From assembly GCA_963674965.2 (NCBI GenBank), contig CAXXFL010000002.1, positions 224,001 through 288,000 of the forward strand: a DNA stretch of 64,000 bases, written 5' to 3'. Under the pieces are notes generated by a model. That model saw nothing but the letters and a program-made list of their open reading frames with translations. It did not search any database and was not told where the DNA came from. Both the position numbers and the translations under genes were made by a program. Source of the DNA: a bacterium (GTDB lineage: Bacteria > RBG-13-61-14 > DATKZS01). Positions 42,924 through 48,016 of the stretch are shown piece after piece (within the stretch, counting starts at the first letter, position 1; every line of letters begins with the position of its first letter).

Positions 42924-43913
42924 TTAATTGTCATACTTCTTTTGTAACTTGTCGAGAATTTCCTCTTTGGTAAATCTTGATATATTTTCTGCGGAAAAAA
43001 TGATCTCCGTTGAGCCACTTATTACGTCCACTGGCTTTTCCCATGGTTTATGGAAGTCTTCTGAATTTTTAATAAACTTGAATAAACAAGTGGTCGGATC
43101 TTCACCATTCAATATCTTCAAGTAAGAAAGAACGTTATTTATAGACATTGAAATCAAAACAAGCCCGTTGACAAGATTTTCAGGAACCCAATTGATAGAC
43201 TTTCTGACTACACGGAAGTGAGGGTGGCTTCTCGAACAAGGGGCTCCATCAATATCCTTGACTGTTAAAAATGATGATCCGAACTCACTTCTGCCTACTA
43301 TATGCATTTTTTCAGGAGGGGCCTGAACTCCCGGTGTACTTTCCAATCCCACCGCAAATCCAAAACCTCCTGGAGATGCCCTGAAACCATGCTTGATGCT
43401 GTTATACTCACTTACCTGCATCTCATCTATAAAATCTCCACAGAATCTCGACCAAAGATCGCTAAACGACCTTGCCGTTTCTTCTTCATCTTTTGCTTTG
43501 CCCTTCAGGTAGGCATGAATCCTCTTTGATACTTCGTACCAAGAGATATATTTCATTCCTAGCATGTTAAAAATGTCTCTACTTCCACCTTCGATTTTTT
43601 CAACCAAGTTCCTCACTTGGTGAGGACGGCTTTTTAATATCCAGCCGTAGACGCAGTTAGGCGCTTGTATTGTTGAGCACAGCAGACTGAATAGAGTCTC
43701 GAGACCATGATAGTAGGCCGTTTTGAGAGCCATTGATGCAAGCAACTTGTCATCGCCCTCAATGTGTTCAATATGGGCTTGGGCGAGGTATTTAAAATAA
43801 TTGGGGTTTACCGAGTTAATGAATTCCATATTGTTTTCATGAAGGTCCAAATCCCATACACAATAAGGAGTCGAGTCGACTTTAAACATGACGCATTGAA
43901 GCTGAAGGGTCAT
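42924..43913 (-). CDS. Low-GC hypothetical protein with HEPN-like motif
   Basis: 329-aa ORF with RBS AAGGAGG; AT-rich relative to flanks; EYNSIKHG motif. Confidence 0.75.
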   Translation of the reverse strand: MTLQLQCVMFKVDSTPYCVWDLDLHENNMEFINSVNPNYFKYLAQAHIEHIEGDDKLLASMALKTAYYHGLETLFSLLCSTIQAPNCVYGWILKSRPHQVRNLVEKIEGGSRDIFNMLGMKYISWYEVSKRIHAYLKGKAKDEEETARSFSDLWSRFCGDFIDEMQVSEYNSIKHGFRASPGGFGFAVGLESTPGVQAPPEKMHIVGRSEFGSSFLTVKDIDGAPCSRSHPHFRVVRKSINWVPENLVNGLVLISMSINNVLSYLKILNGEDPTTCLFKFIKNSEDFHKPWEKPVDVISGSTEIIFSAENISRFTKEEILDKLQKKYDN

Positions 43914-43983
43914 AAGGGCCTCCTTAACGGGTTAAATAAATTTCACGAGGTCTCTAATCATAATAAGGTATGTAAGGTTTTAC

Positions 43984-44203
43984 TCATAACGGGTAACCCA
44001 TAGCTCATCTATGTGGGCGACCGAAGGGAGCAGGTCGGCGCGTATAACTTTAATACCCAACCCGCGACTTTATATTTTCCAAGCATCACCGCGGGTGATG
44101 CGGCGCCCCCATTCTTGGTACCACTCGACCTGCTCGCTATGCTCGCCCACATAGCAAAAGCTATGTGGGTTACCGGCCGGGCCATACTTTATGTCGTTTA
44201 GGC
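43984..44203. repeat. Long imperfect inverted repeat, attC-like
   Basis: ~45-bp arms at about 43992-44037 and 44126-44174; on the minus strand bounded by GCCTAAAC and GTTATGA. Confidence 0.5.
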
Positions 44204-44292
44204 TTATCTTTCCGTCTGGGTCCTCCACCAGTTTTTGTCGTGCTTGACGTAAAGCTCGAGGAAGACCTTTTGTCCCCAGAAGTTCTCCAGGA
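44204..44292 (-). pseudogene. era: 3' remnant of an Era-like GTPase gene (KH-domain end)
   Basis: LENFWGQKVFLELYVKHDKNW resembles the Era C-terminal pattern xExxxGxKVxLELxVKVxxxW; no 5' part present. Confidence 0.55.
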
Positions 44293-44300
44293 TCTGGGCA

Positions 44301-44499
44301 GGATCTGGGGACAGCATACTTATCTCGCTCATATTGCAGGGCAGAGAGGCGTTTATGAATATTCCATCAATATCCACTGTAAGAGAACGCAGATGATTTA
44401 CAATAATTTGGTATACTGCCACCATATCTTCAAAAAATATTTCCGATGGGGGCTTACGCCCCCATCAAATGGTAAAAGGGATAAAGAACTAAAGTGTAA
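44301..44499. repeat. Conserved 3' flank module of lectin gene A
   Basis: Colinear with 46287-46485; about 10 mismatches in 200 nt by manual alignment. Confidence 0.9.
44445..44466 (-). other. GC-rich hairpin/cruciform downstream of variable region A (candidate DGR target-recognition element)
   Basis: GATGGGGGC-GTAA-GCCCCCATC, perfect 9-bp stem, 33 nt after the stop codon. Confidence 0.7.
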
Positions 44500-45819
44500 T
44501 CAGTCCCCGGCGCAACGGAACCCCCTGGAGTTGAACTGGAGAGAAGGCACATAGCCGTTCCGGCCTGCTACGCGCAGGTGGTTCGTAGGGAAGTCCCAAC
44601 TACCGCCGCGCACAACGCGATGCGTACCTGACGGAGGACCGGGAGGATCGTTGGTCGGACTTGAGCTGTAATACGTTGATGAATACCAATCATTGACCCA
44701 TTCCCGAACGTTGCCCGCCATGTCGTAAAGCCCGTAGCCGTTGCCCCCGTAATACGCAACAGTCGAAGTATCGTTGTCCCAGGGATCGCCCGAGTCCAAG
44801 TAATTGGCGTCCGTCCCGCTGATGCTGTCGCCCCAGGGATAGCGTTTGCCGGTAAGGCCGCCTCTGGCCGCATACTCCCATTCCGCTTCGGTCGGAAGCC
44901 TCTTGCCCGCCCAAGTACAGTAGGCCGTGGCCTGGTCCCAACTGACGTAGATTACCGGGAAGTGGTTATAGTCCGGGTTGCCGTAGTAAGAGGGGCGGGT
45001 ATAGCTCGAAGAATTACCCGGCGGGGTGCATCCCCCGCAGCTCACGCAGGTTGCGTACTGCTCGTTGTTCACCTCCCAGATGTCCATGTAGAAGTCCGAG
45101 GTGATGCAGACGTTATGGACCGGGCATTCAAAGGGATATCCGCAGGAATCGCTTGAGTCTCCCATGTTGAAGCAGCCCGCGGGGATAAATGCCATTTGTG
45201 ATACAATTCCACAACTCAATTCCTGGTAGTCAGTTTTGCCATTACAATTATTGTCGATTCCGTCCCAGCATTCTTCGTTTGCTTCGGTTGCGCCTGGATT
45301 GATTGATGCATTTCCATCATGACAGTCATTGCCTCCAACAAGAGTGGATTTGTATCCATCGCCATCTTGATCTGGGTTAGAAAAGGCTATTGAATAGATG
45401 CTGTCCATATCAACACTCAGCGCATACGGCACGCTCGCAATCCTCGCCCTCGGCGTCATCTCCGCGTCCGCGTCAACCTTTACCCCCATCCAGACTTCCT
45501 TGTGCTTCTGGAACACCGCGGCCAGGCTGCTCTCCGTGCCCGGCGTGATCGTGCCCGAACCGATGAGCAGGTTATAAATCCCGCCCGTGACCACCACGTC
45601 CTCCTGTAACACCGTGAGGTACGGCGTCCCGCCCGACTCCACTCCATAGAACGCAAAGGTCAAGTCCACGGTAGTCCCGTCCGCAAGAGGCTGGCCCGCA
45701 GCGTTCGTGAGTCTCCCCTGATAGTTGATAAGCTGCGGAGCGGACTGCGCCCAGGCAATGCCCACCACCACGGCCAGTACTAAAACCCCAACCAAAGCCG
45801 TCCCGATCTTAGCCCTCAT
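44500..45819 (-). CDS. Secreted FGE-sulfatase/C-type-lectin fold protein A, putative DGR target
   Basis: Signal peptide, YQGRL N-domain, [18 protein letters not shown] motif, [29 protein letters not shown]...GFRC C-terminus. Confidence 0.9.
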
Positions 45820-45919
45820 TACTTAATTCTCCCTCTTCGAAATTTGTCAGCAATTCATCCATACGTTACCACGCTGTAAAATACAATACCACCCCCCCCA
45901 TCTCGATCGTCAACAGCAA

Positions 45920-46271
45920 TATCCTTGCTCTCGGCGTCATCTCCGCGTCCGCGTCAACCTTCACGCCCATCCACACGTCCTGGTGGTTCTGGAAGACAGC
46001 GGAGAGGCTTGGCTCGGTACCGGGCGTTACCGTGCCCGAACCGATGAGCAGGTTATAAATCCCGCCCGTGACCACCACGTCCTCCTGTAGCACCGTGAGG
46101 TAAGAGGTCCCGCCCGACTCCACGCCATAGAACGCAAAGGTCAAATCAACGGTAGTCCCGTCCGCAAGAGGCTGGCCCGCCGCGTTCGTAAGCCGCCCCT
46201 GGTAATTGACAAGCTGCGGAGCGGACTGCGTCCAGGCAATCCCCACCACCACGGCCAGTACTAAAACCCCA
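45920..46271 (-). pseudogene. Truncated paralogue: N-terminal domain only of the lectin-protein family
   Basis: [13 protein letters not shown]...EMTPRARI nearly identical to both neighbours; lacks the start and the whole lectin domain. Confidence 0.85.
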
Positions 46272-46286
46272 AGGGATCTGGGGACG

Positions 46287-46485
46287 GGATCTGGGGACAG
46301 CATACTTATCTCGCTCATATTGCAGGGCAGAGAGGCGTTTATGAATATTCCATCAATATCCACAGTAAGAGAACGCAGATGATTTTCAATAATTTGGTAT
46401 ACTGTCATTATATCTTCAAAAAATATTTCCGGTGGGGGCTTACGCCCCCATCAAAGGGTAAAAGGGAAAAAGAATCAAAGTGTAA
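46287..46485. repeat. Conserved 3' flank module of lectin gene B
   Basis: About 95% identical to 44301-44499. Confidence 0.9.
46433..46450 (-). other. GC-rich hairpin/cruciform downstream of variable region B
   Basis: TGGGGGC-GTAA-GCCCCCA at the same offset from the stop as in copy A. Confidence 0.7.
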
Positions 46486-47787
46486 TCAGTCCCCAGCGCA
46501 ACGAAATCCAATGTCGTAGTACAGGTCCGAAGGGTCGAAGTAGTCCCGGTAGGCCACGCGCAAGCCGTCCGTACTGCCGCCCCAACCCCCGCCGCGAAAA
46601 ACGCGACACGTACCTGACGGAGGACCGGGAGGATCGTTGGTGGGACTTGAACTGTAATAAGATGATGAATACCTGTCGTTCGTCCATTCCCAGACGTTGC
46701 CCGCCATGTCGTAAAGCCCGTAGCCGTTGGCCGCGTAATACTCTACTTCAGAGGTGTCATTGTCCCAGGGATCGCCCGAATTCCAGTAATTGACGTCCGT
46801 CCCGCTGATTGTATCGCCCCAGGGATAGCGCTTGCCGGAAAGTCCTCCACGGGCCGCATACTCCCACTCAGCCTCCGTCGGCAGCCGCTTGCCCGCCCAT
46901 GCGCAATAGGCCGTGGCCTGGTTCCAGTTTACGTAGATCACCGGGAAATTGTCATAGGTCGGGTTGCCGTAATAAGAGCCCCGGGAATAACTTGAAGAAC
47001 TGTCCGGCGCGGCGCAGACAGCAGCGTCCACGCAGGCCTTGTACTCCGCGTTGGTAACCTCGTGAACGTCCATGTAGAAACTGGAGGTGATGCACACGTT
47101 GTGGACCGGAAGCTCTTCGCTGTAACCCTCGCCGAACGCGTCGCCCATGTTGAAACAACCGGCGGGGATGAGGGCCATGTTAGGCGGAGTTTTAGAGCAA
47201 TCCTCATCATAACGTCCATCACAATCATTATCCAGGCCATCACACTTATCAACGGCCCCAGGATAAATTGAGGCATTATTGTCATTGCAATCGTCATTGG
47301 GAGTGATTGAGCTTTCCGGCTTGTAATGTCCGTCGCCGTCGAGGTCGAGGTTGGCTAAGTTAACGGTTTCGGCTGTTTCCGCCTTTATTGCATATGGGGC
47401 CGAGCTAATCCTGGCCCGCGGCGTCATCTCCGCGTCCGCGTCCACCTTCACCCCCATCCACACCTCCGCGTGTTTCTGGAACACCGCGGCCAAGCTGGTC
47501 TCCGTGCCCGGAGTGATCGTGCCCGAGCCGATGAGCAGGTTATAAATCCCGCCGGTGACCACCACGTCCTCCTGGAGCACGGTGAGGTACGGCGTCCCGC
47601 CCGAGGCCGCGCCATAGAAGGCGAACGACAAATCAACCGTGCTCCCGTCCGCCAGCGGCTGGCCCGCGCCGTCAGTAAGCCGTCCTTGATAATTCACCAA
47701 CTGCGGGACCGACTGCGCCCAGGCAATGCCAACCACCACGGCCATAACCAAAACCCCAACCAACGCCATCCCGATCTTAGCCCTCAT
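46486..47787 (-). CDS. Secreted FGE-sulfatase/C-type-lectin fold protein B, putative DGR target
   Basis: Same architecture as 44500-45819; C-terminus RGGGWGGSTDGLRVAYRDYFDPSDLYYDIGFRC. Confidence 0.9.
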   Translation of the reverse strand: MRAKIGMALVGVLVMAVVVGIAWAQSVPQLVNYQGRLTDGAGQPLADGSTVDLSFAFYGAASGGTPYLTVLQEDVVVTGGIYNLLIGSGTITPGTETSLAAVFQKHAEVWMGVKVDADAEMTPRARISSAPYAIKAETAETVNLANLDLDGDGHYKPESSITPNDDCNDNNASIYPGAVDKCDGLDNDCDGRYDEDCSKTPPNMALIPAGCFNMGDAFGEGYSEELPVHNVCITSSFYMDVHEVTNAEYKACVDAAVCAAPDSSSSYSRGSYYGNPTYDNFPVIYVNWNQATAYCAWAGKRLPTEAEWEYAARGGLSGKRYPWGDTISGTDVNYWNSGDPWDNDTSEVEYYAANGYGLYDMAGNVWEWTNDRYSSSYYSSSPTNDPPGPPSGTCRVFRGGGWGGSTDGLRVAYRDYFDPSDLYYDIGFRCAGD

Positions 47788-47843
47788 GACTTAATTTCCC
47801 TTCCTCGAGATTTGTAGACAATTCATATGTTACCATGCTGTAA

Positions 47844-47872
47844 ATTACAATACTACCCCCCCCCGATGTCAA
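47844..47872 (-). promoter_or_regulatory. Sigma70 promoter with poly-G9 spacer
   Basis: Minus strand TTGACA-TC-GGGGGGGGG-TAGTAT-TGTAAT; 17-nt spacer. Confidence 0.7.
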
Positions 47873-48016
47873 ACTCCGATTAATAAAATGTTTTTTTCAC
47901 TAGTCACTCTAAGGAGATGTTTTGGAGAACAACCTGATAAAAGCCGGGGAGCGGATTTTAACTCCGCGCATGGAACGCCAATCGCCCCCCTTCGAAAAGA
48001 GTCCCGCAAGACCCCC

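Follow-up and report, generated by a model that had tools for sequence, protein, structure and literature searches.

Two paralogous genes with a formylglycine-generating enzyme fold as putative remote targets of a diversity-generating retroelement, probably written from a variant template

Results

The window analysed here is a stretch of 64,000 nucleotides (nt) of a bacterial genome (GTDB lineage Bacteria; RBG-13-61-14; DATKZS01), namely positions 224,001 to 288,000 of contig CAXXFL010000002.1 in assembly GCA_963674965.2 (G000:C2:224001-288000, the contigs of genome G000 being labelled C1 to C7). Its minus strand carries two paralogous genes, gene A (44500..45819, 439 aa) and gene B (46486..47787, 433 aa), both assigned from their open reading frames (ORFs) and Pfam matches, and both ending in what appears to be a variable region (VR) of a diversity-generating retroelement (DGR). 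VR A (44500..44622) and VR B (46486..46608), on the same strand, comprise the last 41 codons of each gene including the stop codon. The two proteins have an identical architecture, with a hydrophobic leader at the N-terminus, a cysteine motif of the MopE-like type and a domain of the formylglycine-generating enzyme (FGE)-sulfatase type up to the C-terminus; in protein A the leader, as read from the sequence, spans 25 residues and the motif that follows it is cysteine-rich. Family PF03781 matched A with E = 2.9e-60 (residues 208-437) and B with E = 2.1e-63, the matches extending to residue 437 of 439 and 431 of 433, respectively, and PF11617 matched them with E = 2.8e-9 and 1.2e-11. Among solved structures, protein A matched FGE (6muj, E = 4.8e-45) and, over residues 268-437, the Treponema denticola variable protein TvpA (2y3c, E = 1e-21).

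In the alignment to 6muj, the FGE segment 'ylchdsycnr' is aligned with 'w---dfptnh' of protein A, where cysteine is absent. The catalytic cysteine pair of FGE lies in this C-terminal LCHxSYC segment. Since the part of A opposite the two-cysteine segment consists of a gap and the VR, A and B are predicted to be binding proteins built on an FGE fold and not FGE enzymes. The N-terminal 100 residues gave sub-threshold matches to the N-domain of a Bdellovibrio mosaic-adhesive-trimer fibre (29.9-37.5 bits, cut-off 60), a similarity that we treat as a mere lead.

A first-pass annotation, made from the letters of the window alone, had singled out the two gene ends by comparing them with each other, and its counts were reproduced. 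VRs A and B aligned without gaps and differed at 39 of 123 nt, the number it had given as approximate. The differences fell in 27 of the 41 codons, 14 of which changed at codon position 1 or 2 only and kept the same pyrimidine in third position, again as reported; the stretch of 12 residues just upstream, described there as almost identical, is identical in both proteins. Over 200 nt downstream, where about 95% identity had been claimed, 11 positions differed (94.5%), and over 300 nt upstream 46 did. When the differences within the VRs were sorted by the template repeat (TR) described below, A and B differed at 27 of the 40 positions that are adenine in the TR, far above the upstream rate of 46/300 (Fisher p = 1.7e-11), and at 12 of the 83 other positions, which equals the upstream rate (p = 1.0). 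The non-adenine sites of these VRs have thus diverged as fast as their flank, so that no homogenisation has taken place since the duplication, a pattern that fits lost targeting followed by drift.

BLASTN searches (word size 7) with the ends of both genes returned nine close relatives in the genome, one of which is the TR of the only complete DGR found there. This DGR lies on contig C6 in the order target-avd-RT-TR, where RT denotes the reverse transcriptase gene. The cis target F, a 437-aa paralog of A and B, precedes avd (C6:953410-953754, 114 aa), which in turn precedes the RT (C6:952324-953400, 358 aa). The TR (C6:952199-952321, minus strand), a non-coding sequence of 123 nt homologous to VRs A and B, abuts the RT stop codon; it contains 40 adenines and 14 AAY codons and is Asn-rich. 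The available text of Wu et al. 2018 (PMC5758913) designates this order architecture B2. An Asn-rich, non-coding template beside an RT and avd elsewhere in the genome is what the first-pass annotation had predicted, and 16 of the 18 template codons it had guessed fit the TR. At TR codons 24-25 the guess failed, AAC AAC having been proposed for what is AAT ACG, and these two codons are positions where VR B and the VR of a further paralog, C, indicate a variant template (see below). If C6 and C2 are parts of a single replicon, the distance from the DGR to A and B is about 0.56 Mb or more.

The RT gave an RVT_1 match of 96.9 bits and contains the YVDD motif. Its best solved relative is 8ub7, a 328-aa reverse transcriptase (E = 1.5e-50) that is presumably the RT of Bordetella phage BPP-1, and the next match was a group II intron RT (2e-19). 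None of the NCBIfam RT models reached its cut-off with this protein, the best being a group II RT (160.5 bits, cut-off 300); the assignment of the RT to a DGR therefore rests on the Avd protein (NF033474, 98.3 bits, cut-off 80), the TR and the match to 8ub7. The genome contains three RVT_1 matches, on C6, C7 and C4, with none in the window on C2, and a search with a VR/TR profile (nhmmer --max) gave 15 matches, the sole A-rich one being on C6; the earlier statement that the window holds neither RT nor template is therefore correct. The RVT_1 matches on C7 and C4 are two halves of one group II intron RT. Its N-terminal 215 aa are encoded on C4 (L003, C4:399103-402414) and its C-terminal 284 aa, with a maturase domain, on C7 (L002, C7:617694-621017), the halves overlapping in the motif VARKVGDKRVLRLI, so that the intron ORF is split or rearranged. 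By tblastn, no second RT or complete avd was found in the genome beyond these group II pieces and some avd stubs. The assembly (97.6% complete, 7 contigs, 6.5 Mb) holds one DGR and one template.

Eight C-terminal VRs, all in genes of the FGE/C-type-lectin type, aligned to the TR without gaps. The VR of the cis target F on C6 differed from the TR at 23 of 40 adenine sites and 1 of 83 non-adenine sites. For VR E (C6:1176064) the corresponding numbers were 25 and 0, for VR D (C2:337085) 23 and 0, for VR A 22 and 7, for VR B 26 and 9, for VR C (C2:335647-335769) 24 and 10, for VR H (C7:109192) 31 and 9, and for VR I (C4:80648) 20 and 19. Further FGE paralogs had 13 (J), 23 (K) and 28-37 (N, O, P, L and M) non-adenine mismatches out of 83. 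As expected from the first-pass annotation, mismatches to the template were concentrated at adenines, which accounted for 22 of 29 mismatches in VR A (Fisher p = 4e-8) and 26 of 35 in VR B (p = 1.3e-9); this bias was far weaker in the control paralogs outside the DGR family. In changed AAY codons the third base was kept in 11 of 11 cases in A and 13 of 14 in B, and in only 4-8 of 12-13 changed AAY-equivalent codons in the non-DGR control paralogs N, O, P, L and M. The third-base control and the low number of non-adenine mismatches argue that the adenine-specific signature of A and B is genuine and goes beyond the mere placement of binding loops. All eight VRs derive from one template family, and the proposal that A and B are remote DGR targets holds in the sense that their gapless, adenine-biased homology leads to a TR, RT and Avd on another contig: the two VRs appear to have been written by a DGR, and either their last template was a variant or they have drifted afterwards.

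The criterion for non-adjacent targets in the available text of Wu et al. 2018 (PMC5758913) is A-to-N differences only, with minor exceptions, and VRs A and B carry 7 and 9 non-adenine differences in 83 sites. Targets accepted there have up to 11 such differences, so that A and B are within the range given in that text and yet not canonical targets. A VR-like stretch in another genus of the same family (G001:C27, L013 about 1518-1638) differs from the TR at 13 adenine sites and a single other site (position 111), which suggests that nearly the same template is common to several genera, by conservation or by transfer.

E and F show the element at work. They share a duplicated segment of 1612 bp, in which 1 of 891 nt differs from codon 101 to the VR and none of the 70 nt after the stop codon; within the VR, 29 of 123 nt differ, and 28 of these changes are at TR adenines (28 of 40). 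Because the two copies are nearly identical outside the VR yet differ at most adenine sites inside it, the DGR has been active recently in this genome. E is located at a distance of about 220 kb from the cassette; its neighbours are cellular genes that encode an MnmA-type tRNA methyltransferase, a cNMP-binding protein, a Fic protein and a transposase. D, on another contig, shares only 77% identity with F over the 600 nt that precede the VR but equals the TR at 83 of 83 non-adenine sites. D and E are thus remote targets in register with the present TR.

VRs A and B behave differently. Non-adenine mismatches amount to 1 in 249 sites for D, E and F together versus 16 in 166 for A and B (p = 3e-6), and those of A and B are scattered from position 1 to position 114 with no visible tract copied from the present TR. 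T111 is confined to the TR, D, E and F, and the other 12 paralogs have C. From T111 and the pattern of non-adenine sites it follows that the present template overwrote D, E and F, at least that far, and did not overwrite A or B. Six non-adenine states (positions 46, 72, 75, 81, 105 and 111; hypergeometric p = 4e-5 for the shared positions) are identical in B and C, which differ from each other at 26 of 40 adenine sites but only 6 of 83 others. Two positions vary as if they had been adenine in the template that was copied. A, B, C and I vary at position 74, and F, A, B, H and I do so at position 21, as a template with A at both would lead one to expect; the present TR has C at position 21 (C6:952301), where F, B and I have G, A has T and H has A. 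That position 21 differs even in the otherwise perfect cis VR F suggests that the TR itself has mutated, apparently by a recent A-to-C change. The states shared by B and C, taken with positions 21 and 74, therefore indicate a different template rather than drift alone, and since the TR of a related genome (G002, L028) carries T46, C72 and T105, such template variants exist in the family. The first-pass annotation had read a few synonymous differences as extra drift or more than one template, which agrees with the 7 and 9 non-adenine mismatches and with the states common to B and C. Finally, stubs of avd begin exactly 70 nt after the stop codons of E (52 codons, 77% identity, with the same spacing as after F) and of C (20 codons, then a stop), and are remnants of further cassettes.

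GC-rich hairpins follow several of the VRs. The one after A (44445..44466, minus strand) has a 9-bp stem and a GTAA loop, starts 33 nt after the stop codon and has a predicted energy of -11.7 kcal/mol (z = -3.8); the one after B (46433..46450, minus strand) has a 7-bp stem, the same loop and -9.1 kcal/mol (z = -2.8). The hairpins of A and B start 33-35 nt after the stop, and the stem after F comprises 12 bp. The core GGGGGC-GTAA-GCCCCC was present after A, B, C, E and F and not after D, H, I or the TR, and we regard it as a candidate DGR target-recognition hairpin or cruciform. In the part of Guo et al. 2011 (PMC3240598) available, such elements have GC-rich stems of 7-10 bp and 4-nt loops with the consensus GRNA, 4-34 bp from the VR. 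The hairpins of A and B fit these values in stem, loop length and spacing, and their GTAA loop falls outside the consensus. About 32 nt beyond VR D (L006, C2:337054-337085), the downstream sequence gives way to that found upstream of the tandem paralog C.

The similarity between the TR and any of the VRs ends one base past the stop codon, and within the last 21 nt A (TGC, GCC) as well as B (TTT, TGC) depart from the sequence of the TR, D, E and F. The 95 nt that follow the TR (L004 6105-6199, C6:952104-952198) are 85% identical to the 95 nt after VR I (L008 6650-6744, C4:80649-80743), the most diverged of the VRs, and resemble no other VR locus. In both, the first hairpin lies 6 nt past the stop and has a stem of 8 bp; its loop is GAGA downstream of the TR and GCAA downstream of I. 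As judged by eye, the stem is paired at all 8 positions in both, one A-T pair having been replaced on both sides to give G-C. This shared stretch could belong to the DGR RNA as a structured element, could be the sequence of which the TR is a copy, or could be spacer that a cDNA brought into a target.

Evidence from reads was taken from contigs (Logan) of two runs of one sample, probably the source of the genome; such contigs drop rare variants. One contig matched both ends of VR B and skipped 68 nt between them (46513 to 46582) at genome-like depth, and probably represents a paralog such as C. A metagenome scan with protein A gave 169 relatives; among the best 80 of these, the top one was 70% identical and there was no near-identical locus or same-population allele of A. 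In a search for close relatives, 7 of 41 genomes had a match, G000 included, and none of the others belongs to the same genus.

The DGR cassette is situated inside the head-gene cluster of a myovirus-like prophage. It is co-oriented with this cluster and lies between a Mu-F-like head protein on one side and a DNA methyltransferase and the major head protein on the other, surrounded by genes for terminase, portal, tail sheath, tape measure and baseplate (10 ORFs compared with PHROGs, 8 with matches). Giant fusion ORFs of the prophage adjoin the DGR (L004 2025-5900; C6:956041-960612): one of 1291 aa contains two D12 adenine-methyltransferase modules (phrog_27806, 1372.8 bits), and one of 1523 aa begins with a Mu-F head-morphogenesis domain. 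Relatives of the RT reach 73% identity in bacterial metagenome-assembled genomes (MAGs) versus 41% at most in viral contigs, and a 30-nt exact stretch of the TR had no match in viral contigs. Of 80 related loci, the two inspected have the order target-avd-RT among cellular genes. Because of the RT kin in bacterial MAGs and the cellular context of these two loci, the cassette may be cargo of the prophage.

The surroundings of A and B in the window are chromosomal and include genes for a tyrosyl-tRNA synthetase (TyrRS), an amine oxidase and an extracytoplasmic function (ECF) sigma factor. Between B and A, the 5' fragment of a third paralog (45933..46272, minus strand; about codons 10-123) is a gene remnant that is read through within a 180-aa ORF; in a BLASTN alignment of 340 nt, it shares 86.8% identity with the 5' portion of the cis target F. 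The high identity downstream of A and B was rejected as wholly a DGR signal. About 125-140 nt of it (44291-44429 and about 46277-46415, at the same place after both genes) belong to a dispersed repeat that occurs at least 14 times in the genome, which explains most of the 95%; what other VR loci have in common with A and B here is limited to the ~65 nt that follow the stop codon and contain the hairpin. A second repeat family, of about 190 nt, is represented downstream of gene A (43983-44180), with no fewer than 8 additional copies elsewhere in the genome. Over 43870-44450, the metagenome contigs show a 5- to 10-fold rise in depth. A search of positions 43900-48000 against Rfam gave no match at E <= 1.

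Discussion

The reading that we favour, with a probability of roughly 0.7, is that VRs A and B were written by a DGR from a variant template and are now rewritten rarely or never, this template having most likely belonged to a cassette, either an older or a second one, that subsequently decayed. In the mechanism established for DGRs, which we infer to operate here as well, the TR RNA would be reverse-transcribed with random misincorporation opposite adenines, and the cDNA would then replace the VR of any gene whose VR ends match and which has a hairpin downstream. AAY codons would thereby become NNY in the ligand-binding surface, and the scaffold RGG.W, LRVA.R and GFRC would be copied faithfully. 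In the variant template behind A and B, TR positions 21 and 74 would have been A, and for B the template would also have carried T46, C72, C75, G81, T105 and C111. A and B would then be old remote targets that the present TR has not overwritten.

Several observations weigh against this reading. The variant template is deduced and not seen, neither BLASTN at word size 7 nor nhmmer --max having found a second template in the assembly. Drift after loss of targeting accounts equally well for the non-adenine divergence between A and B (12/83 against 46/300 in the flank), and for A, which shares few states with other VRs, drift and a variant template are inseparable. A and B could also still be live targets, given the range of non-adenine differences in the available text of Wu et al. 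2018 (PMC5758913), where it is also suggested that mutation in some DGRs extends to sites other than adenine. Contigs from the read sets covered VR A (305 nt) and VR B (157 nt) with 0 differences each, which corresponds to a single form, rare variants being invisible in contigs. Finally, D has no GC-rich hairpin although it matches the TR perfectly, and the hairpin is therefore an unreliable marker of target competence here; homing at D seems to have occurred without a hairpin, unless the hairpin was lost later.

That A and B are live remote targets of the present TR, their 7 and 9 non-adenine differences being due to non-canonical misincorporation or to patchy cDNA integration, is an unlikely alternative. 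It would agree with the fact that both keep all features of VR D and have the hairpin in addition, with their adenine-site mismatches (22 and 26 of 40), which resemble those of D, E and F (23-25 of 40), and with the acceptance of targets having 7-11 non-adenine differences in the text of Wu et al. 2018 (PMC5758913) at hand. The same RT, however, has left a single non-adenine difference in the 249 sites of D, E and F together, and the differences in A and B spread over positions 1-114 without a visible tract of the present TR. Six of the nine non-adenine states of B are moreover common to C, which random errors would not produce.

The states common to B and C and positions 21 and 74, which point to a distinct template, would equally be explained if a second, living DGR or template with such states served A, B, C and H from the unassembled 2-3% of the genome or from an unbinned phage or plasmid. 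The TR of G002 with T46, C72 and T105 demonstrates that template variants exist in the family, and a completeness of 97.6% leaves some room for such an element. We nevertheless judge it improbable, as the 6.5 Mb at hand yielded a single DGR-type RT, a single complete avd and a single A-rich repeat, the cassettes beside C and E are truncated, and the non-adenine sites of A and B have diverged at the flank rate, unhomogenised since the duplication. Ordinary diversifying selection on the binding site without a retroelement, although the variable positions coincide with ligand-binding loops and the control paralogs also vary most there (23-28 mismatches at the 40 adenine sites), is refuted for practical purposes by the exact template adjoining an RT and Avd, by the third-base control (11/11 and 13/14 kept versus 4-8 of 12-13) and by 7-9 non-adenine differences of 83 versus 28-37 in the controls.

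Writing from a variant template can be placed in a broader scenario, which we offer tentatively and hold to be rather less likely than not to be correct as a whole. A DGR of cellular lineage, now borne by a prophage, would rewrite host genes in trans; A and B would have been written by the template of a lost predecessor, and in this turnover of templates the incoming one would have recaptured D, a target of the old family, and not A, B, C or H. If this were true, the VRs with 0-1, 7-10, 13, 19 and 23 non-adenine mismatches of 83 would form a datable series of VR decay. Among ten DGRs with targets more than 100 kb away, the available text of Wu et al. 2018 (PMC5758913) contains only one that is embedded in a prophage and has remote chromosomal targets.

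The known mechanism of DGRs is unchanged by these findings. They illustrate that two paralogs alone can suffice to recognise a DGR target and to predict its template almost codon for codon. The locus offers a prophage-embedded DGR with perfect remote chromosomal targets and evidence of template change or replacement over time, and its eight VRs constitute a natural series in which one may ask what keeps remote targets competent, be it the variants of the initiation of mutagenic homing (IMH) sequence (TGT/TGC, TTC/TTT) or the presence of the hairpin.

Compared with other systems, this one is of a known kind, Treponema and Thiohalocapsa PB-PSB1 providing precedents for a DGR that has remote targets and degenerate loci; its location in a prophage together with remote targets and its graded series of decaying VRs are unusual. 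In Bordetella phage BPP-1, as far as described in the text of Guo et al. 2011 (PMC3240598) available, Avd, RT and TR likewise bring about adenine-specific mutagenesis of a VR at the 3' end of a gene with a C-type-lectin fold, and a GC-rich hairpin with a 4-nt loop is located downstream of the VR. The phage, however, has the order target-avd-TR-RT, a single cis target that encodes the tail-fibre protein and a GRNA loop, whereas the element described here has the order avd-RT-TR, targets with secretion leaders and a GTAA loop. TR and perfect VRs are moreover identical here up to the stop codon, so that no difference between IMH and its TR counterpart IMH* is visible.

The DGR of Treponema denticola, with TvpA and its remote targets (Nimkulrat et al. 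2016, PMC4891356, as cited in Wu et al. 2018, PMC5758913), resembles the present one in the FGE-type C-type-lectin fold with a C-terminal VR and in that one TR corresponds to several non-adjacent targets, seven in the case of the Treponema TR in the text of Wu et al. 2018 (PMC5758913) at our disposal. Here, the order is avd-RT-TR (B2), the cassette lies in a prophage and, of the seven VRs other than the cis one, only D and E are perfect at non-adenine sites. For Thiohalocapsa PB-PSB1, the portion of Dore et al. 2024 (PMC10907252) available reports one complete locus per class, 'degenerate' loci without machinery and one matching target without diversification. A complete locus accompanied by degenerate ones is also what we find, but the targets in PB-PSB1 are described there as putative antigen sensors or conflict systems and those found here are secreted FGE-fold proteins with a prophage-borne complete locus. 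Beyond what that system presents, the VRs of this genome form a graded series of divergence from the template, with 0-1, 7-10, 13, 19 and 23 of 83 non-adenine sites changed.

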